A DNA stretch of 64,000 nucleotides from Candidatus Riflebacteria bacterium HGW-Riflebacteria-1 (GTDB taxonomy: Bacteria; Muiribacteriota; Ozemobacteria; Ozemobacterales; Ozemobacteraceae), in assembly GCA_002839445.1 (NCBI GenBank), contig PGYB01000001.1, positions 282,735 through 346,734 on the forward strand, written 5' to 3'. Below are positions 17,390-55,334 of this stretch, in pieces (the stretch's first letter is position 1; each line of letters starts with the position of its first letter). The position numbers and the translations under genes were made by a program. The notes below the pieces were generated by a model. It was not told where the DNA came from. It ran no database searches and worked only from the letters and a program-made list of their open reading frames with translations.

Positions 17390-18238
17390 ATGGTTGCACC
17401 AATTTCAATAGAGGACAGGGATCGTGCTAATCAGCACCTGGACCGCTCCATATCGTTTTCGATGTGTGGCAAAATTGACCAGGCCATTGACGAAATAAAA
17501 AAAGCCATCTCAATCGACGGCGAATTTGCACAGGCCCATAATAAACTTGGCGACTACTACATGAAAAAAGGTATGGTTAAAGAGGCGGCGGCGGCTTACA
17601 CCCGTTCACTTGAGCTTGAACCGGCCAATCAGAACTCAAGCTTTGATCTTGGCTGTTCACTTGCACATCTGGGCAAGCATGACGAAGCCCTTGAGTATCT
17701 GCGCAAGGCATTAGAGCTGAAACCTTCGCATAGCGAAATTTATGGCCACATTGGTCGTATTCTCATGATGCGTGGCGAACTTGAAGAAGCAGTATCTCAT
17801 CTTGAGCGGGCAGTATCTGCCAGTTCTGATGACATCATGTCGAGCTTCACCCTGGCCTGCGCCTACCAGATGCAGGGTCAGACTGACAACTCGGTACGCC
17901 TTTTCAAAAAGGTCATCGATCGCTACAAAACCCTTGTAGATGTGAAAAAGAGATTTGCTGAAGGGCATTATTATATTGGCCGCTCGTATTTCTTTATGGG
18001 CGATCTGGACGAAGCCATCAAACATCTCGAAAAAGCAGTTGAATATGACACTGAAGATGTAGACTATCATTACAGCTTTGGCATGTTATACAGCGATGCT
18101 GATGCTTTTTGTTCTCTTGCTGAGGTGCAACACGCGCTCGGCAAATATTCTGAAGCGCGCGAAAACATGTATAAGGCGATCAGCCTCAGCCCTGGCAATC
18201 AGCACTTCGCTCGAATCAAATCACAACTTGGAATCTGA
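17390..18238 (+). CDS. TPR-repeat protein
   Basis: Repeated A..Y.....L.P......LG TPR-like units. Sits between flgI and the rod-binding protein. Confidence 0.55.
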   Translation: MVAPISIEDRDRANQHLDRSISFSMCGKIDQAIDEIKKAISIDGEFAQAHNKLGDYYMKKGMVKEAAAAYTRSLELEPANQNSSFDLGCSLAHLGKHDEALEYLRKALELKPSHSEIYGHIGRILMMRGELEEAVSHLERAVSASSDDIMSSFTLACAYQMQGQTDNSVRLFKKVIDRYKTLVDVKKRFAEGHYYIGRSYFFMGDLDEAIKHLEKAVEYDTEDVDYHYSFGMLYSDADAFCSLAEVQHALGKYSEARENMYKAISLSPGNQHFARIKSQLGI

Positions 18239-23812: not shown

Positions 23813-24472
23813 ATGGCAAACGCACGAAAACCTTCACGGCATAACCAGGAAAAATTACTGTTTGTATTGATGGGTCTTATCGTAGTCGGGCTGATTGTAT
23901 CAGGCTATTTCTTGTTTGTTCGCAAACTTTTGCCAGAAATAGCGGCCATACCCGAGGCCAACAAGCAGGCCGCCCTGGCCGGACATGCACGACAGGTAGA
24001 AGCAAATGCCACCTCCAGCGTTGAAGAATTCATTCCTCAGGAAGAAGCACATTCGCTGAAAATTTATTTTGGGCAGAAGGGCAGCGATCTTCTGGCACCA
24101 GAGCAGAGAATCGTTCGCAAACGCACCATGCTGATAGCGCAGGCACGCCAGATTGTAGAAACAGTGCTCGAAGGCCCGGTAAATACGTCACTTTATCGCG
24201 TGATTCCGCAGGGAACAACTTTACGTGGCCTGTTTTTCGATTCAGGTGTTTTTATTGTTGATCTCAGCAAGGAGTTTGCCAACGTAAACAATTTAGGCTC
24301 ATCTGAGCAGGTCCTCAGCATTTACTCACTGGTAAATTCGCTCACCGAACTTGACCCACGTGCCAAAGTGCGCTTTCTGATAAATGGCAGTGAACCAACA
24401 TCCGATGCAGGACACATAGATATAACCCAGGCATTGACCAGGCTCAAAGAGATAAATGCCAGCGAATCATAA
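23813..24472 (+). CDS. GerMN-domain protein
   Basis: LKIYFGQKGSDLLAPEQR...FFDSGVFIVDLSKEF...VRFLINGSE pattern. Commonly partners AmiC-type amidases. Confidence 0.55.
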   Translation: MANARKPSRHNQEKLLFVLMGLIVVGLIVSGYFLFVRKLLPEIAAIPEANKQAALAGHARQVEANATSSVEEFIPQEEAHSLKIYFGQKGSDLLAPEQRIVRKRTMLIAQARQIVETVLEGPVNTSLYRVIPQGTTLRGLFFDSGVFIVDLSKEFANVNNLGSSEQVLSIYSLVNSLTELDPRAKVRFLINGSEPTSDAGHIDITQALTRLKEINASES

Positions 24473-40144: not shown

Positions 40145-40356
40145 ACTGATCTGTAACCTCCAGAAATTGAGCTGATATAAAGTGCTCTCCCGTTGTATCG
40201 GCAGATTTGTTTATGTAAATTAGAAGTCTTTTAAAAACGCCGGCAAACCAGAATATGATTTTTATGCAGATTTTTTTGCAGATTTTGTTCACAAATATGC
40301 GAAAGCTGCCGAAAAGGTTGAAGATTTTACATCGTTATCTTATTCTCAGGACAGTT

Positions 40357-40965
40357 ATGAAAGAAATCAGCAAAGCACTTGCCTGTATAGTCACACTCAT
40401 ACTCTCCGGCCTCTATTCGCTGGTCATGTATCCGCTGTATCTCTGCAGAAACCTGGGTTATCATTTCAGGTCGCCTTCGGTACTGTTATACGCCACTATT
40501 TTCTTTATCGTCGACCGCTACACCAAGCTGTTGGTGGTTAATCATTCGCATCAGCTTCCGATAAAGGTGATCGACGATTTTTTCACACTGACCTATGTTA
40601 AGAACCCTGGCGTTGCCTTTGGCTGGTTTCCCGACTGGCGGTTGCCACCCATCATTATGGCGCTGACCATGATCATCATCATCTCTTACTACAGTCTCAA
40701 ACTGCCAGAAGAAGAGCGCCTGACGCGTTGGTCGCTGGCTCTGCTCGTTGGCGGCGCGATTGGCAATCTTTATGACCGCGTCGTTTATGGTTTTGTCGTT
40801 GACTTTTTCCTGTTTCATTTTGGCTCATTTGATTTTCCGGTGTTCAATATCGCCGACATCGCAATTGACGTTGGAGTGTTCATGCTGTTCGTAGACATCT
40901 TTTTCCTCAGCCCCGATGAAGATGAGGAAAACAACAATGAAAGCCTGGCGTCAACCTCGGCCTGA
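40357..40965 (+). CDS. lspA: lipoprotein signal peptidase II
   Basis: NPGVAFGWF and YDRVVYGFVVDF...FPVFNIADIAID motifs. The start is uncertain; the ORF extends to 40255. Confidence 0.75.
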   Translation: MKEISKALACIVTLILSGLYSLVMYPLYLCRNLGYHFRSPSVLLYATIFFIVDRYTKLLVVNHSHQLPIKVIDDFFTLTYVKNPGVAFGWFPDWRLPPIIMALTMIIIISYYSLKLPEEERLTRWSLALLVGGAIGNLYDRVVYGFVVDFFLFHFGSFDFPVFNIADIAIDVGVFMLFVDIFFLSPDEDEENNNESLASTSA

Positions 40966-40971
40966 CCAGGG

Positions 40972-41760
40972 ATGTACCCGATACTTTTTTCGACGCCCTG
41001 GTTCAATGTCTACAGTTATGGCCTGTTGATAGCTCTTGGCTACGCGCTGGGAACAATCCTGATCCTCAGAGAAGCACGCCGTGAAGGTCTAAATAGCGAA
41101 GCAATTTTTGATATGCTTCTTTTGCAGCTCGTTGTGGGCATATGCGGATCAAGACTGCTGTTTGTTCTCGAATACACCCCGGAAAAGCTCAATTTTAAAG
41201 ATTTTTTTGCGTTTGAGCAGGGCGGCCTGACCTTTTACGGTGCCGTAATCAGCAGCTTCATCTTTGACCTGCTCTATCTCAAGTTTCGCAAAATACCATT
41301 CTGGAAGGTCATGGACTGCATAGGGTTTGGCCTGCCGGCAGGCATTGCCGTGGCCAGACTTGGCTGCCTGATGAATGGCTGCTGCTATGGAACCAGCAGT
41401 GATTCCCCATGGGCAATGACTTTTACCGATGCCGGGCCCGGCGGCCATCACCCGACCCAGCTCTATGAGTCTCTCGGCGCCGTTTTTATCTTTTTGCTGC
41501 TCAGGTATTTACGTGCCTGGCGCCGCAATTATGGCGAAATATTTCTGGCAGGAACGGCTTTATACGGTATTATCAGATTTTTTATCGAATTTGTCAGGGC
41601 GGAAAATCCTGTGGTAATTGCCGGCTTGACCATGGCCCAGATCATAGGAATACTGGCTCTGGCAGCCAGCGCGGTCGCCTGGAAAAAAATTGCCGCCACA
41701 AAAGACATGCGGGTCATGCCAAACCTTGATACTGTTGAAATACGGCCACGCCATGATTAA
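40972..41760 (+). CDS. lgt: prolipoprotein diacylglyceryl transferase
   Basis: MYPILFSTPWFNVYSYGLLIALGY..., ARLGCLMNGCCYG, HPTQLYES signatures. Confidence 0.85.
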   Translation: MYPILFSTPWFNVYSYGLLIALGYALGTILILREARREGLNSEAIFDMLLLQLVVGICGSRLLFVLEYTPEKLNFKDFFAFEQGGLTFYGAVISSFIFDLLYLKFRKIPFWKVMDCIGFGLPAGIAVARLGCLMNGCCYGTSSDSPWAMTFTDAGPGGHHPTQLYESLGAVFIFLLLRYLRAWRRNYGEIFLAGTALYGIIRFFIEFVRAENPVVIAGLTMAQIIGILALAASAVAWKKIAATKDMRVMPNLDTVEIRPRHD

Positions 41761-42541
41761 TGGAATCTATTTCGGGCTGCCCTACTACACTTACGGGATT
41801 CTGGTCCTTATCGCCTTTCTGGCCGGAATATGGCTGTTCAGGCGCAACGCCCGTCAACTGAGCCTTGCCGTTCCAGACCTTGTCGATCTCTCTCTGGTAA
41901 TAAGCATTTCGGGTCTGATTGGCGCACGAGCAGCTTACATATTGCTTTTTCCCGAACAGTTCAGCACCATACGTGACTATCTGGCTATTCACGAGGGCGG
42001 CCTGGTATTCTACGGTTCCTTGATCGGCGCAGTAATTGCGACGGCAATATATTGTCAGGCTACAGGGTACAGTTTCAGAAAGCTGGTCGACCTGATTGCG
42101 CCAGCAGCAGCGCTTGGGCACGCAATCGGCCGTCTGGGATGCATCAACAACAACTGCTGTTATGGAGCAGTAACAACCACATACTCTATTTACCGTCTGC
42201 CTGGCGATCCGCCAGGGCAGTTCAGACACCCAACACAGATTTACGAGAGTCTGTTTCTGCTGGTTCTGCTGTTTGTTCTCAATCGCCTGCTAAGAATTTG
42301 TTACGCTGGAACATCAACTAAAAGCGGTCTTGTCGCAGGAATTTATCTTGCGGCCTATTCTTTTTTCAGATTTCTGATAGAATACATTCGAGGCGATTCA
42401 CGCGGCGGCTTTTACACCGCCTATAATTTATCGCCATCTCAGATAACCGCAGTTATTCTGCTATTGTGTTCGGCAGCCTGTATCGCTTATGCTGTCAAAT
42501 ATCCTATTGCTAACCGGGGAAAAACCGATGAACAGAGTTGA
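41753..42541 (+). CDS. lgt: prolipoprotein diacylglyceryl transferase, tandem paralog
   Basis: MINGIYFGLPYYTYGILVLIAF..., GRLGCINNNCCYG, HPTQIYES. ATG overlaps the first lgt stop (ATGATTAA). Confidence 0.8.
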   Translation: MINGIYFGLPYYTYGILVLIAFLAGIWLFRRNARQLSLAVPDLVDLSLVISISGLIGARAAYILLFPEQFSTIRDYLAIHEGGLVFYGSLIGAVIATAIYCQATGYSFRKLVDLIAPAAALGHAIGRLGCINNNCCYGAVTTTYSIYRLPGDPPGQFRHPTQIYESLFLLVLLFVLNRLLRICYAGTSTKSGLVAGIYLAAYSFFRFLIEYIRGDSRGGFYTAYNLSPSQITAVILLLCSAACIAYAVKYPIANRGKTDEQS

Positions 42542-43522: not shown

Positions 43523-43939
43523 ATGAGAATAACCGATGAATTTGTAAGGCCTGACAGTCGTCGAGGCAATTTTGCGCTTTACGCCATAGTCTTTTTGTTA
43601 TTTGGCGTCATTCTTTCTATTTTTATTTTTTTTCCACAGTTTTTAAACATGCAGTCTGGCATATACGGTATTTCGTGCCGCGAAATACGGGTTAAAATAA
43701 GAGCTGCCGTCGAAGAATACAATGTAAGCAGCACGAAAAGCATTATTCAGCCTGGCCAGAGAATCGACCTCGACACTCTCAAGGAAAAGGGATTTCTGTC
43801 TGATATCCGCTTATGCCCGCAGAAAGGTGAATACCGCTTTGACGGGATGGGCGCCATCTATTGTACGTTTCATATTTCGGAAGAGAACAAACACGTTGCC
43901 GAAAAAACAGACTCTGACACGCGGAGGGAACGACCATGA
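43523..43939 (+). CDS. small membrane-anchored hypothetical protein
   Basis: Single N-terminal TM, no motif. Confidence 0.35.
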   Translation: MRITDEFVRPDSRRGNFALYAIVFLLFGVILSIFIFFPQFLNMQSGIYGISCREIRVKIRAAVEEYNVSSTKSIIQPGQRIDLDTLKEKGFLSDIRLCPQKGEYRFDGMGAIYCTFHISEENKHVAEKTDSDTRRERP

Positions 43940-44583
43940 GCAAGCATAGACGAAGAACCTACCTGATCAAAACAGGTCTGCAGCTTAGATATATGGGTAT
44001 CATCATCTCTACCATGCTGATGGTGGCATTTGGCGTCGGCTGGACTATCTACCATACGTCATGGAGTCAGATAGCCAACACCCAGGATCTGACGATAGAC
44101 AAGCTGGCTGATATTTTTGATTCAGTTAACTCGACCCTGGTGCGCTGGATATTTGTATTTATTTTTATAATCGCGATATTATCGATATTTGTATCGCATA
44201 AAATAGCGGGACCGGTGTATCGACTCGAAGAGACAACTCGGGTTATCGCATCAGGCGACCTTACCGGCAAAATCTATCTGCGGCACGGCGACGAGCTGCA
44301 GGATCTTCAGGAAGCCTTCAACAAGATGTCAGACTCACTCTGCAAGATGGTAGCTAAAGATCGCGAAGTAATCGAAAAGCTTGTAGCGACGGGTAACCGG
44401 TTACGCGACACCATTGAGAAGAAAAATCTTGACCACAATGCTGTCGAAGCGATCAACAGTGACCTGTATGGCGTCATCGAAGAGTTGCGTCTTGTCACCA
44501 GCGGATTTAAGATTGATGAGTCTGACACCAGTTTCACACCACACTCAGAAACTGAAGCAGCAGATGCGCAAGAAACTGTCTGA
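43936..44583 (+). CDS. membrane protein with HAMP domain
   Basis: Two TMs, then AGPVYRLEETTRVIASGDLTGKIYLRHGDELQDLQEAFNKMSDSL (HAMP). No output domain. Confidence 0.5.
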   Translation: MSKHRRRTYLIKTGLQLRYMGIIISTMLMVAFGVGWTIYHTSWSQIANTQDLTIDKLADIFDSVNSTLVRWIFVFIFIIAILSIFVSHKIAGPVYRLEETTRVIASGDLTGKIYLRHGDELQDLQEAFNKMSDSLCKMVAKDREVIEKLVATGNRLRDTIEKKNLDHNAVEAINSDLYGVIEELRLVTSGFKIDESDTSFTPHSETEAADAQETV

Positions 44584-44610: not shown

Positions 44611-45459
44611 GTGCAGACTGCCGATTTAAAGACTGTCATGCGCAAACATAAGTATTTTACCAGCTTTATTCTTCTCGCCCTGGTCGTTGTTTTTCTCAAC
44701 GGCGCAAGTATTCGACGTTCGGTTGAGAGGTCTGTTAAAGATCCGGTGCCGAAAGGCCGGCCCAATTACGATGCAATGTTTGCCGATGGCAAGCTGAGAA
44801 TAGCGGTATTCTGGGGATGGGATCACCCGCGCGACACAATCATGGGCTCTTTTCCTGCTTTCGAAACACTTAACGGCAAGCGCCTGTATTACAAAGGCAA
44901 GCCGGTGCTCATCGAGATCGGCATGATCACCCAGATTAACGAAAAGCCAAAAGCGATCTTCAAGTCAGCTCTTGAAGACAAAACTATCGACATGGTCATA
45001 TATTCAGGGCACGCCCGCTACGGCAAGGGCATGGCCTTTGAATCGATGGAAGACATCTTCAAGTGCGGCAATGGCGACCTGGTCGAAGATCGGCACGTTA
45101 CACCAGCCAAAGTTTTCAAGGCAACCGCAGATGACCTTGACGCGACAAATTTCCCGCAAAGCTACAAAATTGTCATGCTCAATTGCTGCGATTCACAGGG
45201 GCATTTCCGCCAGAGCTGGGCAAGACGCTTCAAAGAATGCGGGGCTCCCGTAGAACTTTTGACCGTTGAGTTTCCAGTTTTCAACATCGCAGATCACCGC
45301 CGCGTGCTTAACCTGCTACGCGATGTGCTGGCCTTTGCTGACTGGAAAACGATCAAGAAAAACTACGATTCAGAGATCCACCGCCGCAAAAATCGCCTGA
45401 TAATCGACCCGGTATACAACCACAGCGATGATGATTTTGCCATGGACAGCGCCTTTTAA
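44611..45459 (+). CDS. secreted/anchored protein with a candidate caspase-like (clan CD) His/Cys dyad
   Basis: IDMVIYSGHARYGKG and KIVMLNCCDSQG resemble the metacaspase (Y/F)SGHG and D-x-C-H-S-G blocks. The start is uncertain (GTG 44611 or ATG 44638). Confidence 0.35.
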   Translation: MQTADLKTVMRKHKYFTSFILLALVVVFLNGASIRRSVERSVKDPVPKGRPNYDAMFADGKLRIAVFWGWDHPRDTIMGSFPAFETLNGKRLYYKGKPVLIEIGMITQINEKPKAIFKSALEDKTIDMVIYSGHARYGKGMAFESMEDIFKCGNGDLVEDRHVTPAKVFKATADDLDATNFPQSYKIVMLNCCDSQGHFRQSWARRFKECGAPVELLTVEFPVFNIADHRRVLNLLRDVLAFADWKTIKKNYDSEIHRRKNRLIIDPVYNHSDDDFAMDSAF

Positions 45460-45606: not shown

Positions 45607-45635
45607 TTGAACCGCAGTGTTTTTTGCTGTACACT
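45607..45635 (+). promoter_or_regulatory. putative sigma-70 promoter of the K+ channel gene
   Basis: TTGAAC, 17-nt spacer, TACACT. The ATG at 45645 is about 10 nt from the -10, so the leader is short or absent. Confidence 0.3.
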
Positions 45636-45644
45636 GAGCGGCAT

Positions 45645-46652
45645 ATGAACATTCAACAGCGCATGCTCAACCTGACCTTCACACTGCTTTTTCTGCTGCT
45701 GTGCGGGACAATTGCCTATCGCGTCGTTGAGGGTGACCACTGGACCATGCTCGATGGTCTGTTCATGACGGTAATAACTCTATTCACAGTTGGCTATTCA
45801 GAGGTCCACACTCTTTCCAACAATGGGCGCCTGCTCACGATAGTTCTGATACTTCTTGGCGGCGGCTTCATGGCCTATGCCGCCTCAACCATTGCACAGA
45901 TGCTTTTCGAAGGAAAACTTCGCGAAATTTGGGGGCTCAAAAAAATGCGTAAACAGATCGACGAATTGAAGAATCATTACATCATATGCGGTGCTGGAAA
46001 AACGGCACAGGAGATCATTAAAAGCCTTAAGAACAGCGCCCCCAGGCAGTTTGTCGTCATAGACATTGATCACAGCCGCATTGACAAGTTGCAGCAGGAT
46101 AATATTTTTGCGATCGAAGGCGACGCGACTTCTGATGAAATACTCATGGATGCTGGCATTGAGCGGGCAGCCGGGCTTGCGGTAACTTTGCCAACCGATG
46201 CCGACAACCTCTTTGTCACTCTTTCGGCGAAGGGCTTTAAGAGTGACCTCTTCGTAGTTGCCAAGGCAGAAAAAATAGACAGTATAGCCAAGTTACGCAA
46301 AGCAGGCGCCAACAAGGTTGTTTCTCCGAACATTATAGCTGGAGCCCGTATGGCGTCGATGCTTTACCGTCCATCGGTGGTTGACTTCATGGATGCTGCA
46401 CTGGCAGGCGACAGCAAGGCAATGATGATGGAGGAATTCAGGATTCAAGGTCAATCCTATCTTGATGGCAAAGCAATTAAAGATGCCGAAATCAGGCAGC
46501 GCTCAGGCGCTATTATAGTATCGGTGCGACGCGACAATGAAACCACAGTGAATCCGCTGCCAACGTTCGTTTTTAAGGCATGTGACATACTTGTGGTTCT
46601 GGGTACTGATGAGCAGATCAAGAATTTTTCACCTTTAACAGTAGTTAAATGA
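45645..46652 (+). CDS. RCK-domain (TrkA-N/TrkA-C) gated K+ channel, MthK/Kch-like
   Basis: 2-TM pore with TVGYS selectivity filter, GAGKTAQEI Rossmann (TrkA-N), C-terminal TrkA-C. Confidence 0.75.
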   Translation: MNIQQRMLNLTFTLLFLLLCGTIAYRVVEGDHWTMLDGLFMTVITLFTVGYSEVHTLSNNGRLLTIVLILLGGGFMAYAASTIAQMLFEGKLREIWGLKKMRKQIDELKNHYIICGAGKTAQEIIKSLKNSAPRQFVVIDIDHSRIDKLQQDNIFAIEGDATSDEILMDAGIERAAGLAVTLPTDADNLFVTLSAKGFKSDLFVVAKAEKIDSIAKLRKAGANKVVSPNIIAGARMASMLYRPSVVDFMDAALAGDSKAMMMEEFRIQGQSYLDGKAIKDAEIRQRSGAIIVSVRRDNETTVNPLPTFVFKACDILVVLGTDEQIKNFSPLTVVK

Positions 46653-46671: not shown

Positions 46672-49600
46672 ATGAATTACCGATTTTCGCTAGTGGTTCT
46701 ACTAATTTTCGCAACAGCAGCTGCTCTGTTGGGTGCCAGCCAACAGGAAATCACACAGATGCAGATGCGCAACAATATACCTGCGCAGATGCAAACACAG
46801 AGCGCAAACACTGATTATAACAGCGTGCCGGCGGCCACAATTAATTCAACGAATGCCTCAGAAAACCCGGATTTTGTGCAGAGCCAGACAAAAGCAGCAA
46901 CGACCAGCATAAAAACGGTTAAGACGCTGGTTCCCTATGAAGACCTTTACAAGGTGCTCCAGCAGGATATTGGCAAGTATTTTATTTTGCCGATAGAAGA
47001 GTTCGAAAAGCTCAAATCGGCAAAAGAAGCCTGGCTGGCCTCAGCGAGCAAACCAGTTACTGCGCCGCCACCGTTGTCTTACCAGATCAATTCAGCATCA
47101 ATAGACGGTCAGATTGAAGAAAATTTTGCGCGCCTGAACGTAACTTTCAAGCTCGAAACTTTTACCGACGCCTGGCATGAAATTCCTCTTCTCTGGGGCA
47201 GTCTCGCCGTTTCAGCGGTCAGACTGAATGATGCGCTCACTACTCTCAAGACCAGCTGGATCGACACCAACACACGTCAGGTGCAGTTTGGCAAGATCAG
47301 CAAGCGCAGCAACATGATGAACATGTATCAGGCTGCTTCTGGCGGCAGCGACAGCCTGAGCCAGAATAACTGGAAAGACACTATGTTTTCTTTGCCGGTA
47401 TTTGGCAAGGGCACACACGAATGCCAGATTTCATTTGTTGTGCCGATTCAGAACATCGAAGACCTCTTTACCCTTCAGTTCAGCATGACGCGCATACCGC
47501 TCACCTTTATCGAGCTGCAGGCAAAGGATTTCATTCTTTCCATCGACAGCAGCAGCTTTAAGGATTTCACTGTCAGCGAGCAGCCGCAGGCAAAGGGCTG
47601 CACCTTCATTGGCTGGCTCGGCGCCAACAGCGACATCTCGATAAAATGGCGCAGAAGAGTTCTACGTGCAGCGATCATAGCAGATCCGGTCATTGAGCCA
47701 ACACCCGACATCGACGCACCCGTTTCAACTGAACCAGCACAGGTCAAGCCCGATCGCGTAACTGCACCCATCAAACCAATTATCTACGCACGTTCGCAAA
47801 CTCTGGTCACTCTAGGCGAGACCGCCATACATTCATACAAAATATTTGACTTTAAAATCAGCAAGGCCCCGGTAACCCAGTTCTATTTCAGCATTCCTGC
47901 CGGGGTCGAAATAGTTTCGGTAACTGGCGACCGCCAGGTCAACCAGCGCATGTTGCTTGAACACGGCCAGAGAAGGCTGCAGGTAGAATTTCAGGCTGGC
48001 CGCGAAGATGCCTGCCAGATCACTATCGCTTATGAATCTCCGGTAAATATGACCAGCGCCACGATAGGTATTCCAGAGGTTACTCCACTGCAGATAGAGC
48101 GAGAACTTGGAACCATAGCGATTGAGGCACTTACCTCAATTGAAGTGCAACCCGGAAATGATGAAAAAGAGCCACTCAAAAAAGGCGTTTTCCCGATCGA
48201 CCCGCAAGAAGCTCCGGTGACAATCAAAGCACGCGCCACCATGCCCCTGCTGCTGGCTTATCGCCACAACACCAGCCCTACCGGCATAATGCTCGGAGTA
48301 AAGCGCTATCAGGATGTGCCGCAGCAGACAGTAGTTGCCGACAGTCTTGAGGTCAAAACGACATTTACCACCAACAAGACAAGCAACTCACTGATCAGCC
48401 TGAACATCCGCAACAACAACAAGCAGTATCTTCAGCTGCAGCTCGCTTCCGGGTCTGAGATCGTTTCGGCCTTCAGAGGCGGCCAGGCTGTAAAGCTGGT
48501 TGCCGGCAGAAACGACGGCAAAGTGCAGATTCCGCTTGAAATGAGCCAGGTAGTGGGCGAAACGGTTCAGCAGAACCTGCAGATATTTTTAAAGAACCCG
48601 GTCAGCGAAGTCAAATGGCGCGGCGGCCTGGAATTCTCGCCGCCGTTGATCGACATACCGATTTCAAGATTCACCTGGTTTCTCTATGCACCAGAAGACT
48701 ACCATCTCTATGATTTTTCCGGCACGGTCAAAGACGCCAGAACGCGCAAAGACCCGTTTTTCTTCAGAGGTTTCATGCGCCTGCTTAAACTGGCGTGGGG
48801 AATCGTGACCAGCCCTGACGCAGTCTTTGGCATTGGCTTTTTTGTTTTTCTGGTATTGCTGATCGTGTCGAGAAAGCTGCTGTTCGCCATTCTCAAGGGC
48901 ATCTGGGAAATGATCTGCGCGATTTTCGGCATGCTGTTTTCCGGCAGAGGTTTCAGGCTGGGCGAACTCATGGTAGTCATCGCAGTAATCGCTGTTCTGG
49001 CGGCAATTGCCACGCCCAATTTCCGCAAAGCGCGCGAACAAGCGCGCGATAAGGCCTGCATGGCCAACATCAGGGTTCTAACCGGTGCCGTTGAAATGTA
49101 TAACATGGACAAAACACCGATGATGACTAATCTAAACATGGAACTCCTGATAAAGAACCATTTTCTCAAGAGCCCAATCATTGGAGCAGAAAAGGACTGT
49201 CGCTATGTAGCGAGCGGTAATCTGAACGAAGACGGCCAGATATACTGCCAGCTGCATGGAAACCTGGAAGGACAAAGACCTTCTGAAACAAAAGCAAGAA
49301 CGATGGCAAGTGCTGATTATGGTGCCAAGTCAATGCTGTCAAAGAGTGATGTCGCAATGGAACAGCAGGCAATGTCAGGCAGATCTGCCGACGCACCGGC
49401 AGTCGGGCAGAAACCCGGCTTTGGTGCCGCCAGAACCCATGGCATGCTGCCAATCAACACCAAATTTGTCATGACGAGAAACTACTATATGCTTGAGCGC
49501 GATCTGGTTATCTGCGACGTGGCCAGCAATGGCGCACTGATCGCCAATTCAACCAGCCCGACAGTAAGAGTCAGTTATCTGCACAATTCTGTAGTGCGCT

Positions 49601-52308
49601 CGGCCGAAGTTATTGCCTTTGTAATAGCCTTGTTCAGCGGTCTCTACTTTGTTTCTGGGGCATTCTACAAATATTCTGCCAAAATCACTTTTGCCGGTCT
49701 GATAATCGTTCTGCTCTCAATCGTAGACTTCAAGATCGGATCAGTCGGAGACAGCGCGAATACCGGCCTCTGGTTAGCACTTGGCGGCGCGTTCATCTGG
49801 AAATTCTTCTGGATACTCAGTAAGCTCAATCTGTTCAAGAGTGATGGCAGCGACCAGATACCACCTTCGATTCCACCTTCGACACCAGGAACGAGAAAAT
49901 TCAGTAATGGCGAAATGAACGCCGGCGATGTATTCGGCACCCGGCCTGGTGCTGGCTGCACCGGCATTAAAACACTGCTGCTGCTGCTTTTCATTCTGAC
50001 AGCGCTGGCGGTTTTGCCACTGGCGGCGCAGGAAACTCGTGAAGTCAGAATCATGGCGCCATTCAAGGATCTGTCAAGCATACTCCCGACAGGAGAACGT
50101 TCTGTAATCATACCAGAGAGCGACTACCGCTATCTGACCGACATCAAGGTTCCTGAAAAGCCTGAACAGTTTGCACCACAGAGTTATCAGTTCGGCTCAG
50201 TAATTTACCGTGGACACATTGAGGAGCGCGGCGTCAGGTTTGTTGCAGAATACCGATTGCAGCTCTTTAACAAAGAATGGAAAAAGATCGAACTGCTGTC
50301 ACCTGAGGTGATTCCATCAAAAGCGAGCATCAATGGGGCGGCGCTGGCGCTGACCCTCATGGAATCGCGAGGAATGGCGGCATACGGCTTTTTGACCGAT
50401 GCAACCGGCAGCGTTGACATCAGCGTAGAATTCTTCGTGCCAATGGATTCAAGCGAATTCCGGCACACCCATCGCTTTACCCTGCCGACACTTCCGGTGT
50501 GCATATCCACGCTGCATCTGACGGTTGACGAAAAAGACTGCGAGGCCTGGATCGACCCGGGAGTTCTCGGCAAAGCAGAGCGTGTGGACAACAAGTCGAT
50601 TTTCAAAGCTATTCTTCCACCAACGGCGGCGGTAAAGGTAGAGATTTACCGGACAACGGCACAGGCGGTTGCTGTAGAAACAACAGAACCTGAAGAAGTT
50701 GAGCCAGACAAGCCGGTGGTAATTGAAGAAAAGACCAGGATCAGCGTCTATCAGCTTGCCATGCTCTACTTCAGAGAAGGATTTGTCAGCGGCACGCATG
50801 TATTCGACATAGACATCAAGGGCGGCAGCGGAATTTCGAGCCTGAGCTTCATTCTGCCCGACCGCATCAGAATACAGAAGATTGACAACCGTCTCATCGA
50901 CGACTGGAAAATCAACGAAGACAGTCAACCACGCAGACTGGAAGTAGTTTTCAAGTCGCAGATCAGGGGCAAAACCCAGCTGACTATCGAATATGAAGAT
51001 GACATGCAGAATCTGAAAGACGAAAGTTATAAATTTGGCGAAATACACGTTGCCCATGCTGAGCGTTCTTCTGGAATAATCGGGATTGGCTGCCTGCAGA
51101 CTCTTGAAATTCTTGCCAATGAAACGCCGCAGGGCTTTGATACGCTTAACCCGGCCGAGTTTCTCAACAATTGGAAGCTCGAGCGCCCCGAAAAGACGCC
51201 TTACGCATTCAGATTTGTCAGGTATCCCGACGGCGTTGCCGAGGTTGGGGCTCCGGATCCGACCGTTCCCGTCAACTATTCAACTGCGGTCGCGACGAAC
51301 AGGTTGACCCTTACTATAACCCGCCCTGAAGATATCAGCGTGCAGACAGCAACGATTGATCGCGCAGAAGCGATGACCCTGCTCAATGAAGACGGTTACA
51401 TGATCACCAGGGTTGTTTATGAGGTTCGCAACCATTCACAGCAGTTTCTCAAGGTTCGCCTGCCGAAACTCGAGAGTTACGAGACCGAACTCTGGAGCAC
51501 CCAGGTCGCTGGTCTGGCGGTTCGCGCCGGCTTTGACAAAGAGAACGGTGTTTACAATCTGCCGATAATCAGTTCTCAGTCTGAGAGGGGCGAGTCAAGG
51601 GCGTTTCCGGTCGAACTGGTTTTCACAATACGCACCGGCAAATCGCTGCAGGCATTCAACCCGATAAAAATGGAACTGCCGGCAGCACACCTGCCGATCA
51701 GCGAATTGAGCTGGGTTCTTTATCTGCCGGAAGGTTATGAGCTGATGCGTGAAGTCGGCAATCTCGACCGCTCAGTAAAAGTATCTGACCTCAAGTTTCT
51801 CGACAAGCCCGATTACTTTTCGAGCGTATCAAGTGCGGTTAACATGCAGATGCGCCAGAAGGGCAATTATCAGCAGACACAGCAACAGACGCAGAGTTCA
51901 TCAGAAAAGAATTTTGGCATGGCCGGCATGCTTCCGGTCAAGTTCAATATCCCGAAAACCCAGTGGGCGACGCACTTCACCATGTTGCAGATCGAACCAG
52001 ACAGCAGACCACCGTTCATAGACGGCATGCTGGTCAACCCGCGCAAGGGCAAGGGTTTTGCCTTTCAGATACTGATGATTCTCGCCGGCATGCTGGCAGC
52101 GTTTGGACTGGTGCGTCTGGCTATAACGCGGCGCTACGGCTGGTTTATCCTGCTGGCTGTGCTTGGCATCATTCTTACTCTGGCGATCTACCTCAAGCTG
52201 TATCAGGCCGACCATTTCTTCCAGATGGGACTGTCGGCGGCACTGATCACCTGGCTGCTGTTCAGGTTCTTCGCCTGGCACCCGTCAGAAGAACAGAAGG
52301 GAGCCTGA
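46672..52308 (+). CDS. giant 1878-aa multi-module protein: secreted module A, internal prepilin-type domain, polytopic linker, paralogous module C
   Basis: Uninterrupted 5637-nt ORF. Layout: N-terminal signal peptide, ~740-aa module, TM, canonical prepilin segment (aa ~754-870), four predicted TMs, a second signal-like segment (aa ~1082), a second ~750-aa module, three C-terminal TMs. Confidence 0.6.
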   Translation: MNYRFSLVVLLIFATAAALLGASQQEITQMQMRNNIPAQMQTQSANTDYNSVPAATINSTNASENPDFVQSQTKAATTSIKTVKTLVPYEDLYKVLQQDIGKYFILPIEEFEKLKSAKEAWLASASKPVTAPPPLSYQINSASIDGQIEENFARLNVTFKLETFTDAWHEIPLLWGSLAVSAVRLNDALTTLKTSWIDTNTRQVQFGKISKRSNMMNMYQAASGGSDSLSQNNWKDTMFSLPVFGKGTHECQISFVVPIQNIEDLFTLQFSMTRIPLTFIELQAKDFILSIDSSSFKDFTVSEQPQAKGCTFIGWLGANSDISIKWRRRVLRAAIIADPVIEPTPDIDAPVSTEPAQVKPDRVTAPIKPIIYARSQTLVTLGETAIHSYKIFDFKISKAPVTQFYFSIPAGVEIVSVTGDRQVNQRMLLEHGQRRLQVEFQAGREDACQITIAYESPVNMTSATIGIPEVTPLQIERELGTIAIEALTSIEVQPGNDEKEPLKKGVFPIDPQEAPVTIKARATMPLLLAYRHNTSPTGIMLGVKRYQDVPQQTVVADSLEVKTTFTTNKTSNSLISLNIRNNNKQYLQLQLASGSEIVSAFRGGQAVKLVAGRNDGKVQIPLEMSQVVGETVQQNLQIFLKNPVSEVKWRGGLEFSPPLIDIPISRFTWFLYAPEDYHLYDFSGTVKDARTRKDPFFFRGFMRLLKLAWGIVTSPDAVFGIGFFVFLVLLIVSRKLLFAILKGIWEMICAIFGMLFSGRGFRLGELMVVIAVIAVLAAIATPNFRKAREQARDKACMANIRVLTGAVEMYNMDKTPMMTNLNMELLIKNHFLKSPIIGAEKDCRYVASGNLNEDGQIYCQLHGNLEGQRPSETKARTMASADYGAKSMLSKSDVAMEQQAMSGRSADAPAVGQKPGFGAARTHGMLPINTKFVMTRNYYMLERDLVICDVASNGALIANSTSPTVRVSYLHNSVVRSAEVIAFVIALFSGLYFVSGAFYKYSAKITFAGLIIVLLSIVDFKIGSVGDSANTGLWLALGGAFIWKFFWILSKLNLFKSDGSDQIPPSIPPSTPGTRKFSNGEMNAGDVFGTRPGAGCTGIKTLLLLLFILTALAVLPLAAQETREVRIMAPFKDLSSILPTGERSVIIPESDYRYLTDIKVPEKPEQFAPQSYQFGSVIYRGHIEERGVRFVAEYRLQLFNKEWKKIELLSPEVIPSKASINGAALALTLMESRGMAAYGFLTDATGSVDISVEFFVPMDSSEFRHTHRFTLPTLPVCISTLHLTVDEKDCEAWIDPGVLGKAERVDNKSIFKAILPPTAAVKVEIYRTTAQAVAVETTEPEEVEPDKPVVIEEKTRISVYQLAMLYFREGFVSGTHVFDIDIKGGSGISSLSFILPDRIRIQKIDNRLIDDWKINEDSQPRRLEVVFKSQIRGKTQLTIEYEDDMQNLKDESYKFGEIHVAHAERSSGIIGIGCLQTLEILANETPQGFDTLNPAEFLNNWKLERPEKTPYAFRFVRYPDGVAEVGAPDPTVPVNYSTAVATNRLTLTITRPEDISVQTATIDRAEAMTLLNEDGYMITRVVYEVRNHSQQFLKVRLPKLESYETELWSTQVAGLAVRAGFDKENGVYNLPIISSQSERGESRAFPVELVFTIRTGKSLQAFNPIKMELPAAHLPISELSWVLYLPEGYELMREVGNLDRSVKVSDLKFLDKPDYFSSVSSAVNMQMRQKGNYQQTQQQTQSSSEKNFGMAGMLPVKFNIPKTQWATHFTMLQIEPDSRPPFIDGMLVNPRKGKGFAFQILMILAGMLAAFGLVRLAITRRYGWFILLAVLGIILTLAIYLKLYQADHFFQMGLSAALITWLLFRFFAWHPSEEQKGA
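48931..49275 (+). other. embedded prepilin-type (GspG-like) domain with cryptic leader MLFSGRG|FRLGE
   Basis: In-frame ATG 48931. GFRLGELMVVIAVIAVLAAIATPNFRKAREQARDKACMANIRVLTGAVEMYNM is a paralog of the pilin at 24541-24906. G-1, F+1 and E+5 are intact. Confidence 0.6.
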
Positions 52309-52310
52309 CC

Positions 52311-53015
52311 TTGCTTATTGAAGACCCGACGACCGATGTAACGCCAAAAGGCCATGGCAATGAACTTAAGGGCGTACAGGGCATGATAATTCCCTTCATT
52401 CTGCTCGGTTTTGCGCTCTATTTCTGGAACTCTGCCCTGCTGCTGCCCATCAAGTATCTGACCGTGTTCTTTCATGAGCTTTCGCACGCACTGGCGTCGG
52501 TTTTAACCGGAGGCGAGGTTGTGCATATTGAAATTAACTCGAACCAGGGTGGCCTGGCGGTTACCCGGGGCGGCTGGCGTTTTATCGTTCTCAGCGCTGG
52601 CTATCTGGGCAGCCTGCTGTGGGGAAGCTTGATTCTGCTGGCGGCGGCGAAAACCCGTCATGACCAGCACATCACTGCCGGACTTGGCATTCTGCTGCTG
52701 CTGGTTACGGCAATATGGGTGCGCAATCTTGAGGGCGTCATCATCTGCGCGCTGACAGGGTTCGGGCTGCTCGGCATCGCGGCTTATTCCACAGAAAAGG
52801 TCTGCGACCAGTTCTTGAAGTTTCTCGGGCTGACATCATGCTTCTACGTGCTGTTTGACATCAAGAGCGATCTGATTGACCGCTCAATCAGTGTCTCTGA
52901 TGCATACAGAATCTCGGAAATGCTTCATGTGCCGGACTGGCTGGTGGGTGTTGTCTGGCTGGTAATTGCAGGTATAATAACCTGGAAAGTTCTTTACTGG
53001 AGTCTTGAAGAATAA
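52311..53015 (+). CDS. M50B-like HExxH polytopic membrane metallopeptidase
   Basis: TTG start 3 nt after the giant ORF's stop, AAGGGAG RBS. FFHELSHAL within the first TM region, about six TMs. The track ORF begins earlier at 51963, inside the giant gene. Confidence 0.5.
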   Translation: MLIEDPTTDVTPKGHGNELKGVQGMIIPFILLGFALYFWNSALLLPIKYLTVFFHELSHALASVLTGGEVVHIEINSNQGGLAVTRGGWRFIVLSAGYLGSLLWGSLILLAAAKTRHDQHITAGLGILLLLVTAIWVRNLEGVIICALTGFGLLGIAAYSTEKVCDQFLKFLGLTSCFYVLFDIKSDLIDRSISVSDAYRISEMLHVPDWLVGVVWLVIAGIITWKVLYWSLEE

Positions 53016-53030
53016 AACAAGGGGATTGCT

Positions 53031-54650
53031 ATGAGTCTGAATCTCGAACAACTGCTGATGCTACGCGACCTGCACATGAGCCTGGACGACCTGATCGAAG
53101 AACTGCAACTGCATCATGCCAACCTTGAAGCCGCGCTGGGCAAGATATATTTGTTTCTTAACCAGAAACTGAAAGTAGAAACCTTCTATGTAGAGACAGA
53201 AGACGAGAGCCTTAACCACCGCGTGTTCTGCTTTGGCCGCGGTAACGACGATATAAAGCGCAAAACGCCGCAGCTTCTTAAAATAGACCGCGCTTCGACT
53301 TTCACGACCCCAGGCCTCTTCTGGGTCGTTCAACCCATCGAGATGGGCAAAACCATAATCGGTGCCATAGGAATGGCGTTTGAAACCGAGTCAGCCCCGA
53401 CAAAAGATATGGCACCTGAAATTCTCTACACCGTGAGCGAACTGCTCGATAACTTTTTCTTCAGCATTCATATTAATCGCCTTAAACACAGTCTGATCAT
53501 GGGTATACAGTCAGCGCTGAAAAGCCATTCGATTGCCGACTCAATCGACGGTGCAGTGTATGTATTGAAAAAAGAAATACCATTTCGCAAAATGATACTG
53601 CTCTATTCAGACCATGAATTGACCGGTGTCAGCAAGATAAACTATCTGGTTTACGAAGATTACGCGAGAGTTTATGATTCGGGCGAAACACGACATCCCG
53701 GTCTCGATGATTTTGTCAAAGACACTGATGGCTGCCTGAGTGCCAATACCGACGAACTCAAAAAAGTGCTGGGCGACGACGATCTTATGGTTTCATACCT
53801 GCTTGACGGCCTTATCGATGAAGACCTGATCGGTAAAGTCATTTTTGTTCCTGAGAAGGGCGTGACTTTTTCGATTTTCTGCCGCGAGATTATTCAGGTG
53901 TTCACCGAAACTCTCAGACAACGCCTGGTCGACTTTAATCGCGAGCGCAACACTTTGCGCAAGTTCTTTTCTGACAAGGTTATTGCCCGACTGACTTCGG
54001 AGCCTGGCTACCACAAGCTTTATCTCGAGCCACGCGACACCGACATCGGCATTATTTTTGCGGACATATCTGGTTTTACCAAAATGAGCGAGCAGATACT
54101 GGTTACTCCCGAGCGCATAACCAAGTTTGTCGACACCTGGTCGAACGAGATCATCAAACGGGTGTTTCCGCTGGGTGCCTGCCTCGACAAACTGGTAGGT
54201 GACTGTATAATATTGCTGTTCGGGCCGCCGTTTTATTCTGGCACACCTGAAGAAATCGCGGAAAAGGTTATCAAGTCAGCAGAAATTATCATAGAAGTCA
54301 CTCGAACAGTTTTCATGATGCCGGAATATTCAGACATCAGAAAGCACCCGGACTACGCGAAGTTTGGCGTGGCGATTGGTGCGAATTACTGCCCGGCGGT
54401 AGTGGGTCTGATCGGGCCGAATGACGACCTGACTGCTTTCAGCTCAGGAATGAATATTACCGCGCGACTACAGGGACTGGCTAAGGCGGATCAGATACTG
54501 GTCACTGAACGGCTGCAGGAACTGATCAGGCCGATGAATATGTGGCAGCTGGTTGGACCGCAGGCAATGCCGGTCAAGAACGTTGAAAAGCCGCTGGTTT
54601 ATTATCATGTAACCAGTCTGGAGAAAGCCAATCAGGCAGGCCAGAAATAA
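53031..54650 (+). CDS. class III adenylate/guanylate cyclase with N-terminal sensory region
   Basis: IGIIFADISGFTKMSE...DKLVGDCIILLFGPP cyclase core. The ~320-aa N-terminal domain is unassigned. Confidence 0.75.
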   Translation: MSLNLEQLLMLRDLHMSLDDLIEELQLHHANLEAALGKIYLFLNQKLKVETFYVETEDESLNHRVFCFGRGNDDIKRKTPQLLKIDRASTFTTPGLFWVVQPIEMGKTIIGAIGMAFETESAPTKDMAPEILYTVSELLDNFFFSIHINRLKHSLIMGIQSALKSHSIADSIDGAVYVLKKEIPFRKMILLYSDHELTGVSKINYLVYEDYARVYDSGETRHPGLDDFVKDTDGCLSANTDELKKVLGDDDLMVSYLLDGLIDEDLIGKVIFVPEKGVTFSIFCREIIQVFTETLRQRLVDFNRERNTLRKFFSDKVIARLTSEPGYHKLYLEPRDTDIGIIFADISGFTKMSEQILVTPERITKFVDTWSNEIIKRVFPLGACLDKLVGDCIILLFGPPFYSGTPEEIAEKVIKSAEIIIEVTRTVFMMPEYSDIRKHPDYAKFGVAIGANYCPAVVGLIGPNDDLTAFSSGMNITARLQGLAKADQILVTERLQELIRPMNMWQLVGPQAMPVKNVEKPLVYYHVTSLEKANQAGQK

Positions 54651-54852
54651 CCGGGCAAAAAAGCGGTTCGCACGAAGTCACAAAGGCACGGAAATGCAGG
54701 ACAAGTCTGCGTATTAGCGGCTTTGTGCGGTCAGTCCGTATTTATAATGATACTATTCACAGAGAATTCGTTCACAGCGAAAAACTGGGTATCGGAGTTG
54801 TCTTTGTAATTGCCAGCAACGACGAGAACGATTATGGAAGGCTTAATTTGTC

Positions 54853-54937
54853 ATTCTGCACGCAGCAAGGTCGCAGAATCCATGACTTTACCGGCATTCT
54901 GGATCCTGCGACTCCGCGCAGGATGACGATTACGACG
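54853..54937. repeat. two tandem ~43-bp imperfect repeat units, each containing a hairpin
   Basis: Unit 1: cattctgc...gcagaat (7-bp stem, 54853-54879). Unit 2: atcctgcg-actccg-cgcaggat (8-bp stem, 54903-54924). Both units begin cattctg and end (c/g)atgac. Unit 2 runs into acgattacgacg. Confidence 0.5.
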
Positions 54938-55034
54938 TGCAGGATGTACTGGTGCGAGAACGAACGAAATAAGTAGAATTGGTATGATTTCGCAGATGTT
55001 GTGCCAGGGCTGAAAAATAAAGAAAGAAAAAATA

Positions 55035-55334
55035 GTGACTGCTAAAAAGACCGAAAAGGGCTGGTGGCTGTATATTATCGAGTGTGCCGACAACAGCCTG
55101 TACACCGGTATTACCAATGACATTGAGCAGCGCATGGCGAAGCACAACGAGGGAACAGCATCGCGTTATACCCGTGCCAGAACGCCAGTTCGACTGGTTT
55201 ATCGTGAGCCGCACCCGGATCGCTCAAGCGCGAGCCGACGCGAATTTGCAGTCAAGCGACTGACGCGCGATGAGAAGCTGGCGCTTATCAGCACTGAAAA
55301 CCATCTCTCTGCGCTTACCCGAAGAGATGATTAA
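55035..55334 (+). CDS. GIY-YIG nuclease family protein (YhbQ-like)
   Basis: GWWLYIIECADNSLYTGITNDIEQRMAKHN. Confidence 0.7.
   Translation: MTAKKTEKGWWLYIIECADNSLYTGITNDIEQRMAKHNEGTASRYTRARTPVRLVYREPHPDRSSASRREFAVKRLTRDEKLALISTENHLSALTRRDD

Follow-up and report, generated by a model that had tools for sequence, protein, structure and literature searches.

We examined two neighbouring genes within a 64,000-nucleotide stretch of the genome of Candidatus Riflebacteria bacterium HGW-Riflebacteria-1 (contig PGYB01000001.1, positions 282,735 to 346,734 of the forward strand; the whole stretch is hereafter called the window). One encodes an M50B-like polytopic membrane metalloprotease and the other a class III nucleotide cyclase, and both lie immediately downstream of a giant open reading frame (ORF) for a membrane protein with an internal pilin, with which the original prediction had joined them into a single processing and signalling unit. 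We consider it most probable, at about 60%, that they are two ordinary and separable genes of known families, namely a stand-alone membrane metalloprotease and a soluble class IIIb adenylyl cyclase regulated by GAF-like domains, which were inherited within a conserved block of genes. This reading is carried by family memberships, residue conservation, fold similarity and gene-order statistics. For the three-gene unit the outcome is clearly negative and, with both genes in known families and separable from the giant gene, little changes for now.

With regard to mechanism, we infer that the protease most likely cuts peptide segments that are embedded in the membrane or lie next to it, in a role that would be common to its orthologues in many phyla and hence independent of the giant protein. 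In Riflebacteria its gene has been inherited beside, and is probably co-transcribed with, that of the giant protein, which may be one of its clients. The cyclase would be a cytosolic enzyme of the homodimer type, in which the GAF-like domains and a helical linker may couple a small-molecule signal to synthesis of cyclic AMP (cAMP), and its place next to the protease gene would be a clade-specific accident of gene order.

The protease: family, fold and orthologues

The polytopic HExxH protein of about 234 residues that had been predicted directly behind the giant stop codon, with AAGGGAG as its ribosome-binding site, was borne out as an ORF (Table 1), the product of which matched PF13398 (Peptidase_M50B-like) with an E value of 3.4e-49 and 167.7 bits (cut-off 26) over profile positions 7–199 of 201. 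Pfam matches to the proteins of the window were reported at E ≤ 0.01, and at that threshold PF13398 was the sole match for the protease, with none to the canonical M50 model (PF02163); NCBIfam had no model matching either the protease or the cyclase. The protease homologues numbered 750, the closest (P0001, from a Riflebacteria metagenome-assembled genome, MAG) being 99% identical, and for the giant and cyclase products proteins of HGW-Riflebacteria-1 were 100% identical. Residues H55, E56, H59, D183, D187 and D197 were 100% invariant among 95 protease sequences, 47 of which came from other phyla, and an SDA motif near the C-terminus was also conserved. From the invariance of the catalytic residues across phyla, we read the protein as being under selection for catalysis.

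An AlphaFold model built on an alignment of 15 sequences (predicted local distance difference test, pLDDT, 86.8) gave seven long helices. The HExxH motif, which had been assigned to the first transmembrane segment, was found in the second predicted membrane helix (residues 42–65), directly followed by a beta-hairpin (residues 69–86) and thereafter by a G97xxxS101 motif. Residues 1–24 were conserved neither in sequence nor in length and had a pLDDT of 37–45, and an alternative start at the ATG at position 52383 is possible, against which stand the homologues P0048 and P0116, having no Met at that place, and the choice of the upstream start by gene callers in homologues. In a Foldseek search with the model, the site-2 protease (S2P) of the mjS2P structure came out on top with a probability of 0.95, yet with a TM-score of just 0.24, and the NxxPxxxxDG or LDG motif of S2P enzymes was absent from the protease when searched for as a regular expression. 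A profile of the protease family compared with the sequences of the PDB gave no S2P chain at E ≤ 10, only spurious matches to G-protein-coupled receptors, and an apparent kinship with S2P thus shows in the fold alone. We read the protein as a minimal and divergent relative of the intramembrane metalloproteases, a member of PF13398 and not a canonical M50 peptidase.

Orthologues outside Riflebacteria were found at 47 loci, with 40–48% identity and identical catalytic residues, in Myxococcota, Desulfobacteraceae, Poribacteria, Rhodobacteraceae, Planctomycetes, Verrucomicrobia, Acidobacteriota, Hydrogenedentota and other groups. None of these 47 loci had a giant gene or a cyclase near the protease. 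Their 68 immediate neighbours, as annotated with Pfam, were chorismate synthase (five cases), MFS transporters (four cases) and scattered housekeeping genes, and no partner was conserved across phyla, the clusters of neighbours found by BLAST representing synteny within a phylum only, as in Poribacteria. An 1815-residue gene upstream of the protease at one locus (L077) was considered as a homologue of the giant gene and rejected, being an unrelated DEAD/helicase-like protein. Since the protease is kept with unchanged catalytic residues at loci that lack the giant gene, within the phylum as well as far beyond it, what it does cannot hinge on the giant protein.

The cyclase: catalytic domain and sensor

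The gene next downstream proved to encode a class III cyclase, as predicted, its product matching PF00211 (Guanylate_cyc) with an E value of 6.5e-10 over residues 336–517, which is above the gathering threshold; the catalytic domain also has the cyclase fold. The closest solved structures were those of CyaB (3r5g, E 1.3e-15) and CyaC (1wc1, E 1e-13), both of class IIIb. By alignment with these, D345 and D391 would bind metal, K387 and T468 would contact the substrate, and N475 and R479 would stabilise the transition state; all of these were invariant among 25 cyclase homologues apart from N475, which was at least 90% conserved. T468 aligns to the Thr of the 'DFT' or 'DYT' motif in CyaC and CyaB, respectively. 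A Lys together with a Thr that replaces the Asp of class IIIa is the ATP-specific pattern of class IIIb, and with K387 and T468 following this pattern cAMP is the predicted product.

The cyclase had no membrane segment. Its large N-terminal part had been described as uncharacterised, which held inasmuch as Pfam does not recognise it, residues 1–330 giving no match to the GAF family at E values up to 5; in the predicted structure, however, residues 1–310 model as two GAF-like domains with the GAF fold. The model (pLDDT 90) consists of helix/sheet/helix units at residues ~5–160 and ~168–310, a long conserved helix and the catalytic domain, and it aligns over 327 residues to a phytochrome-linked cyclase (6fht). 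Linker residues R296, Q297, R298, D301, N303, R304 and E305 were invariant or almost so among the 25 homologues, which is what the transducer element of a cyclase would show.

An exhaustive HMMER search with residues 1–330 gave only 116 cluster representatives, so that the family of this N-terminal region is a small one; almost all of them are 515–580 residues long and therefore of the same architecture. Full-length homologues with that architecture also occur in Myxococcota, where they stand without the protease. The protein can thus be annotated as a member of a GAF-like/GAF-like/class IIIb cyclase family of about 116 clusters from Riflebacteria and Myxococcota. A reading of the locus as a defence system was also considered and dropped, PADLOC having matched the cyclase domain weakly to a generic PycC model (E 1.4e-5) and none of the other genes.

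Gene order, the giant protein and rival explanations

Gene order was analyzed in two samples. The first, anchored on the protease, comprised loci of about 20 kb from individual look-ups and from one scan of species-representative genomes, the protease being the constant element by design of that scan, whereas the second, anchored on the giant gene, came from one metagenome scan and one additional locus (L089). To call presence, each locus was searched by tblastn with the full set of window proteins. Among 33 species-level loci of the Riflebacteria type, the giant gene immediately preceded the protease in 24, was absent from that position in 7 and was undeterminable in 2, and the cyclase was directly downstream of the protease in 19, absent from there in 10 and undeterminable in 4. 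All three genes were contiguous in 11 of the 33, another 9 had the giant gene and the protease without the cyclase, 7 had the protease and the cyclase without the giant gene, and the rest were truncated. The proposed three-gene unit thus has partial support: the giant gene and the protease are widely adjacent (24 of the 31 assessable loci), but the complete triplet, at 11 of 33 loci, does not hold together as a unit.

Four arrangements were seen. The first, as in the window, runs from the gene of a membrane-anchored 282-residue protein (here unk282) through an optional K+ channel gene, the giant gene, the protease and the cyclase to a GIY-YIG gene. In the second, the optional K+ channel, giant and protease genes stand without the cyclase. 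The third, found in gut and rumen MAGs, has the genes of a HAMP-domain protein, unk282, the protease, the cyclase and the GIY-YIG protein in a row, with no giant gene, and in the fourth, found at L004, unk282 and the K+ channel precede the protease at a gap of 4 nucleotides and neither partner is present. The expectation that the three genes should be found together wherever any of them occurs thus failed, with 7 loci without the giant gene, 10 without an adjacent cyclase, 47 with the protease alone, and two giant genes without a protease beside them (L089 and L104).

In the window the giant stop codon (TGA, 52306–52308) is separated from the protease start by 2 nucleotides, and the protease and cyclase genes are 15 nucleotides apart. 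A simple scan gave no terminator-like site at either junction, promoter and terminator scans being uninformative overall, and spacing and junctions are consistent with co-transcription of the three genes.

Several observations count against treating the protease as merely a neighbour of the giant gene. On a neighbour-joining tree of the protease, adjacency to the giant gene was found on every deep Riflebacteria branch and is therefore probably ancestral; it was lost in L004 and in a gut clade nested beside that of the window. The gap between the two genes is mostly 1–10 nucleotides (2 in the window, 1 in L001, 10 in L003 and 9 in L006, with 84 in L005), and the pair was kept in L005 and L030 although both flanks differ there. 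Casual synteny would be neither as deep nor as tight, and as a pattern of this kind usually reflects a functional link, the giant protein may account for part of what the protease does in Riflebacteria. The search anchored on the giant gene found the protease after it at 9 of 11 assessable loci, so that the pair is a genuine conserved adjacency, the two exceptions being the full-length giants of L089 and L104, which belong to the most divergent lineage (35–36% identity) and have no protease within 8–10 kb downstream. General membrane proteolysis as the role of the protease is also itself an inference, the searchable literature demonstrating no activity or substrate for any PF13398 protein; we found incidental mentions of the family and no functional study of a member, and nothing that links Rv0359 to site-2 protease. 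With the family having no known substrate, membership in it says little on function.

The giant protein itself had no Pfam family. Residues ~750–820, the N-terminal region of its pilin, matched GspG, PilA and geopilin chains as well as sub-threshold NCBIfam pilin models, and its N- and C-modules cross-matched at 20–24% identity. About 40 full-length homologues of 1808–1906 residues were found, and the gene is therefore a genuine single ORF. Its layout suggests three units joined by fusion, namely an N-module with a signal-like start, the internal pilin and a C-module. The last of these opens with a signal-peptide-like segment (residues ~1093–1122, ...LPLAAQE) that resembles the N-terminus of the protein. 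The pilin N-terminus carries a site of the prepilin-peptidase type, G760|F761-R-L-G-E765, in which F761 aligns with mature residue 1 of GspG and PilA and G760 is invariant in eight homologues. As this site is canonical, no new protease is required to free the N-terminus of the pilin, and in view of both the site and the signal-peptide-like start of the C-module, housekeeping peptidases could already cut the giant precursor. No type IV pilus machinery or prepilin peptidase was found among the window ORFs scanned. Distantly related metagenome proteins of 2100–2900 residues (P0161–P0174; for example at L087, 8001–15605, and L088, 8001–16091) also contain an internal pilin-like segment, some of them with an H-X9-DG/SBP_bac_10 domain, and embedded-pilin giants therefore appear to be a wider phenomenon; none of those checked had an M50B-like gene nearby, and P0161 and P0169 had no cyclase nearby either.

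The main rival, possible though we regard it as doubtful, is that the giant protein and the protease form a functional pair without the cyclase, in which the protease would either cut inside or beside the membrane-helix clusters of the giant precursor (residues ~710–790, 970–1030, 1095–1120 and 1795–1850) or, once prepilin peptidase and signal peptidase had acted, clear the stubs remaining in the membrane, in the manner of RseP on remnant signal peptides. The recurrent and seemingly ancestral adjacency described above argues for it, as do the narrow gaps in most loci, which suggest translational coupling, the persistence of the pair between different flanks and the about nine hydrophobic segments of the giant protein, some of which are internal and leader-like. 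Against it stand the protease with unchanged catalytic residues at loci lacking the giant gene (seven species and L004) and at the 47 loci of other phyla, as well as the divergent giants that have no protease beside them. The HAMP-domain protein, unk282 and the K+ channel are moreover conserved in the block at equal depth, so that the adjacency is not specific to the pair. The stricter proposal, that in Riflebacteria the protease is dedicated to maturation or stub clearing of the giant precursor, following prepilin peptidase and signal peptidase and acting on the helix clusters that separate the three modules, we consider unlikely. If true, PF13398 as a whole would gain its first substrate, and there would be a first example of a pilin that comes from a processed polyprotein. 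For the preferred reading of two separable genes, the phylum-wide adjacency still offers one concrete candidate substrate for this widespread family.

We think it very unlikely that the core of the locus consists of the HAMP-domain protein, unk282 and the protease, perhaps with the cyclase, the giant gene being an inserted passenger and unk282, as a membrane-anchored extracytoplasmic protein, a site-1-type protease that acts ahead of the M50B-like site-2 protease in regulated intramembrane proteolysis. The proposal draws on unk282 as the most conserved gene of the block, with 57–82% identity across the phylum, on its N-terminal membrane anchor and on its position, directly before the protease in all seven giant-less species loci and upstream in most others. 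It also draws on the invariant motifs 'IYSGH[AG]RYG' (H134) and 'LN[CT]CDS' (C193), with YSGH..G and NCCDS at their core, which to the eye resemble the His/Cys dyad of clan CD (caspase- and gingipain-like) peptidases. That resemblance is, however, a by-eye reading of two motifs; unk282 matched no family in Pfam at an E value of 10 with 15 orthologues and no solved structure in a PDB profile search. Furthermore, unk282 was not detected at L005, L030, L006, L025, L033 and L039, all of which have the giant gene and the protease with adequate upstream flank, and the block contains neither an anti-sigma-like substrate nor a sigma factor.

To the full unit as first proposed, in which intramembrane cleavage frees the pilin or the modules of the giant protein and cAMP couples this to a signal, we give hardly any credence. 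The three genes are indeed contiguous and close in the window and in the 11 species-level loci, but the cyclase looks incidental, its adjacency to the protease being limited to one major clade of the protease tree and persisting there after loss of the giant gene from the locus. Elsewhere, in a genome having the giant gene and protease in the second arrangement, the orthologue of the cyclase is on their contig but ~39 kb distant, and at another locus it is 6.5 kb from the protease. In the complete 5.2-Mb chromosome of an Ozemobacteraceae member (L003), an opposite-strand GYF_2/AIM24 gene (10775–11797, minus strand) stands between protease and cyclase and would break any co-transcription of the two there. 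The cyclase is also soluble with GAF-like sensors of its own, and the pilin N-terminus has the prepilin-peptidase site. The most constant neighbour of the cyclase is the GIY-YIG gene and not the protease, the former following it wherever the cyclase is in the block with a long enough flank, also at L003 (GIY-YIG at 13496–13759) and L099 (at 24067–24306), in which the cyclase is no longer next to the protease; at L090, where the cyclase stands alone, there is no GIY-YIG gene. As a neighbour of the cyclase the GIY-YIG gene is thus more faithful than the protease.

That the M50B-like protein should not be a protease in vivo, serving for example as a zinc-binding membrane scaffold or another hydrolase, is highly improbable: the lack of any biochemically characterised PF13398 member in the literature searched, the absent S2P third-ligand motif and the low global TM-score with S2P fit such a role, but the HExxH motif with its catalytic Glu and the three Asp residues are invariant across phyla, as expected of an active metallohydrolase, and an S2P-like order of helix, beta-hairpin and GxxxS helix is apparent in the model.

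The surrounding block and comparison with known systems

The HAMP-domain protein (HAMP215), unk282, the optional K+ channel, the giant protein and the protease form an old syntenic block in Riflebacteria. The features of the window that belong to it, or lie next to it, are listed in Table 1.

Table 1. Positions of the genes, motifs and domains discussed, in coordinates of the window.
Feature	Position	Strand	Remarks
HAMP215, 215-residue HAMP-domain protein with two transmembrane segments	43936..44583	+	PF00672; conserved upstream of unk282 in most loci
unk282, membrane-anchored 282-residue protein	44611..45459	+	Conserved; matched nothing in Pfam or the PDB
K+ channel with TrkA_N/TrkA_C (RCK) domains	45624..46652	+	Pfam; directly upstream of the giant ORF
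Giant membrane protein, 1878 residues	46672..52308	+	Two related large modules around an internal pilin
Codons of the prepilin-peptidase-type site G760|F761-R-L-G-E765	48949..48966	+	Inside the giant ORF
Shine-Dalgarno-like AAGGGAG	52297..52303	+	Within the giant ORF, at its 3' end, and 7 nucleotides before the protease TTG; seen in the sequence itself
M50B-like polytopic zinc metalloprotease gene (predicted)	52311..53015	+	234 residues, TTG start; PF13398 Peptidase_M50B-like match
Codons of the HExxH zinc/catalytic motif, H55-E56-L-S-H59	52473..52487	+	Predicted helix 2; invariant in 95/95 sequences
Codons of D183-I-K-S-D187...S196-D197	52857..52901	+	Invariant acidic residues; candidate third zinc ligand
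Shine-Dalgarno-like AAGGGGA	53019..53025	+	5 nucleotides before the cyclase ATG; seen in the sequence itself
Soluble GAF-like/GAF-like/class IIIb adenylyl cyclase gene (predicted)	53031..54650	+	539 residues, ATG start
Two GAF-like sensor domains, cyclase residues 1–310	53031..53960	+	Not recognised by Pfam
Catalytic domain, cyclase residues 333–529, with D345, K387, D391, T468, N475 and R479	54027..54617	+	CyaB/CyaC alignment
99-residue GIY-YIG protein gene	55035..55334	+	PF01541; most constant neighbour of the cyclase

The block belongs to a long series of housekeeping and envelope genes that share its strand, with genes for an RpoD-like protein, AccA/AccD, LspA, two Lgt proteins and RluD upstream, and those for Rho, RNase G and an MltG-like protein further upstream. 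The stretch 40255..42541 (plus strand) holds the LspA gene followed by two tandem and slightly overlapping Lgt paralogues (40972..41760 and 41690..42541). Between the cyclase and GIY-YIG genes is a gap of 384 nucleotides (54651..55034), in which there was no Rfam match, no terminator-like site in a simple scan and, as the sole ORF, an unconvincing one of 83 codons with a GTG start (54725..54976). Farther downstream, on the minus strand at 58358..62138, are genes for an 864-residue fusion of a LuxC-like acyl-CoA reductase with an AMP-binding domain and for a LuxE-like acyl-protein synthetase, a pair that is syntenic in the genome of L003 (59% identity; 13766–17496). The window held no RNA elements or tRNAs, and the literature on Riflebacteria had no mention of this locus. 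A Riflebacteria-type block was also found in MAGs labelled as Candidatus Methylomirabilis, Erysipelotrichia and Candidatus Avigastranaerophilus (L013, L019, L029 and L037), having proteases 46–74% identical to that of the window, and these labels are probably the result of mis-binning or mis-assigned taxonomy.

Compared with known systems, the protease shares with other members of PF13398 a full-length profile match, a size of about 230 residues, the polytopic character, the HExxH motif in a membrane helix and the SDA motif, the sole distinction being its genomic place, in Riflebacteria, after the giant pilin-bearing gene. With the site-2 proteases RseP, mjS2P and SpoIVFB it appears, from its model, to have in common an HExxH motif in a membrane helix, then a beta-hairpin and a GxxxS motif in the next helix, and on that likeness it would work like an intramembrane metalloprotease. 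It differs from these enzymes in having no canonical M50 match, no NxxPxxxxDG or LDG motif, no PDZ or CBS domain and no anti-sigma or pro-sigma substrate gene nearby, in its global TM-score of 0.24 and in its invariant D183, D187 and D197.

The cyclase has the same six catalytic residues, including the Lys/Thr pair, as CyaB of P. aeruginosa (3r5g) and CyaC of Spirulina platensis (1wc0/1wc1). These two have N-terminal sensor or membrane regions of their own, whereas the sensor of the window cyclase consists of two divergent GAF-like domains. Cyclases with a tandem GAF followed by the cyclase domain are also known, reportedly from the work of Kanacher et al. in 2002, in CyaB1 and CyaB2 of Anabaena. 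The GAF-like domains of the window cyclase differ from those of the GAF-regulated enzymes in escaping the Pfam GAF models, and there is no PAS domain, but with Anabaena CyaB1/CyaB2 and the phytochrome-linked 6fht it shares the overall plan of a tandem GAF-type sensor, a long helical linker and a class III domain.

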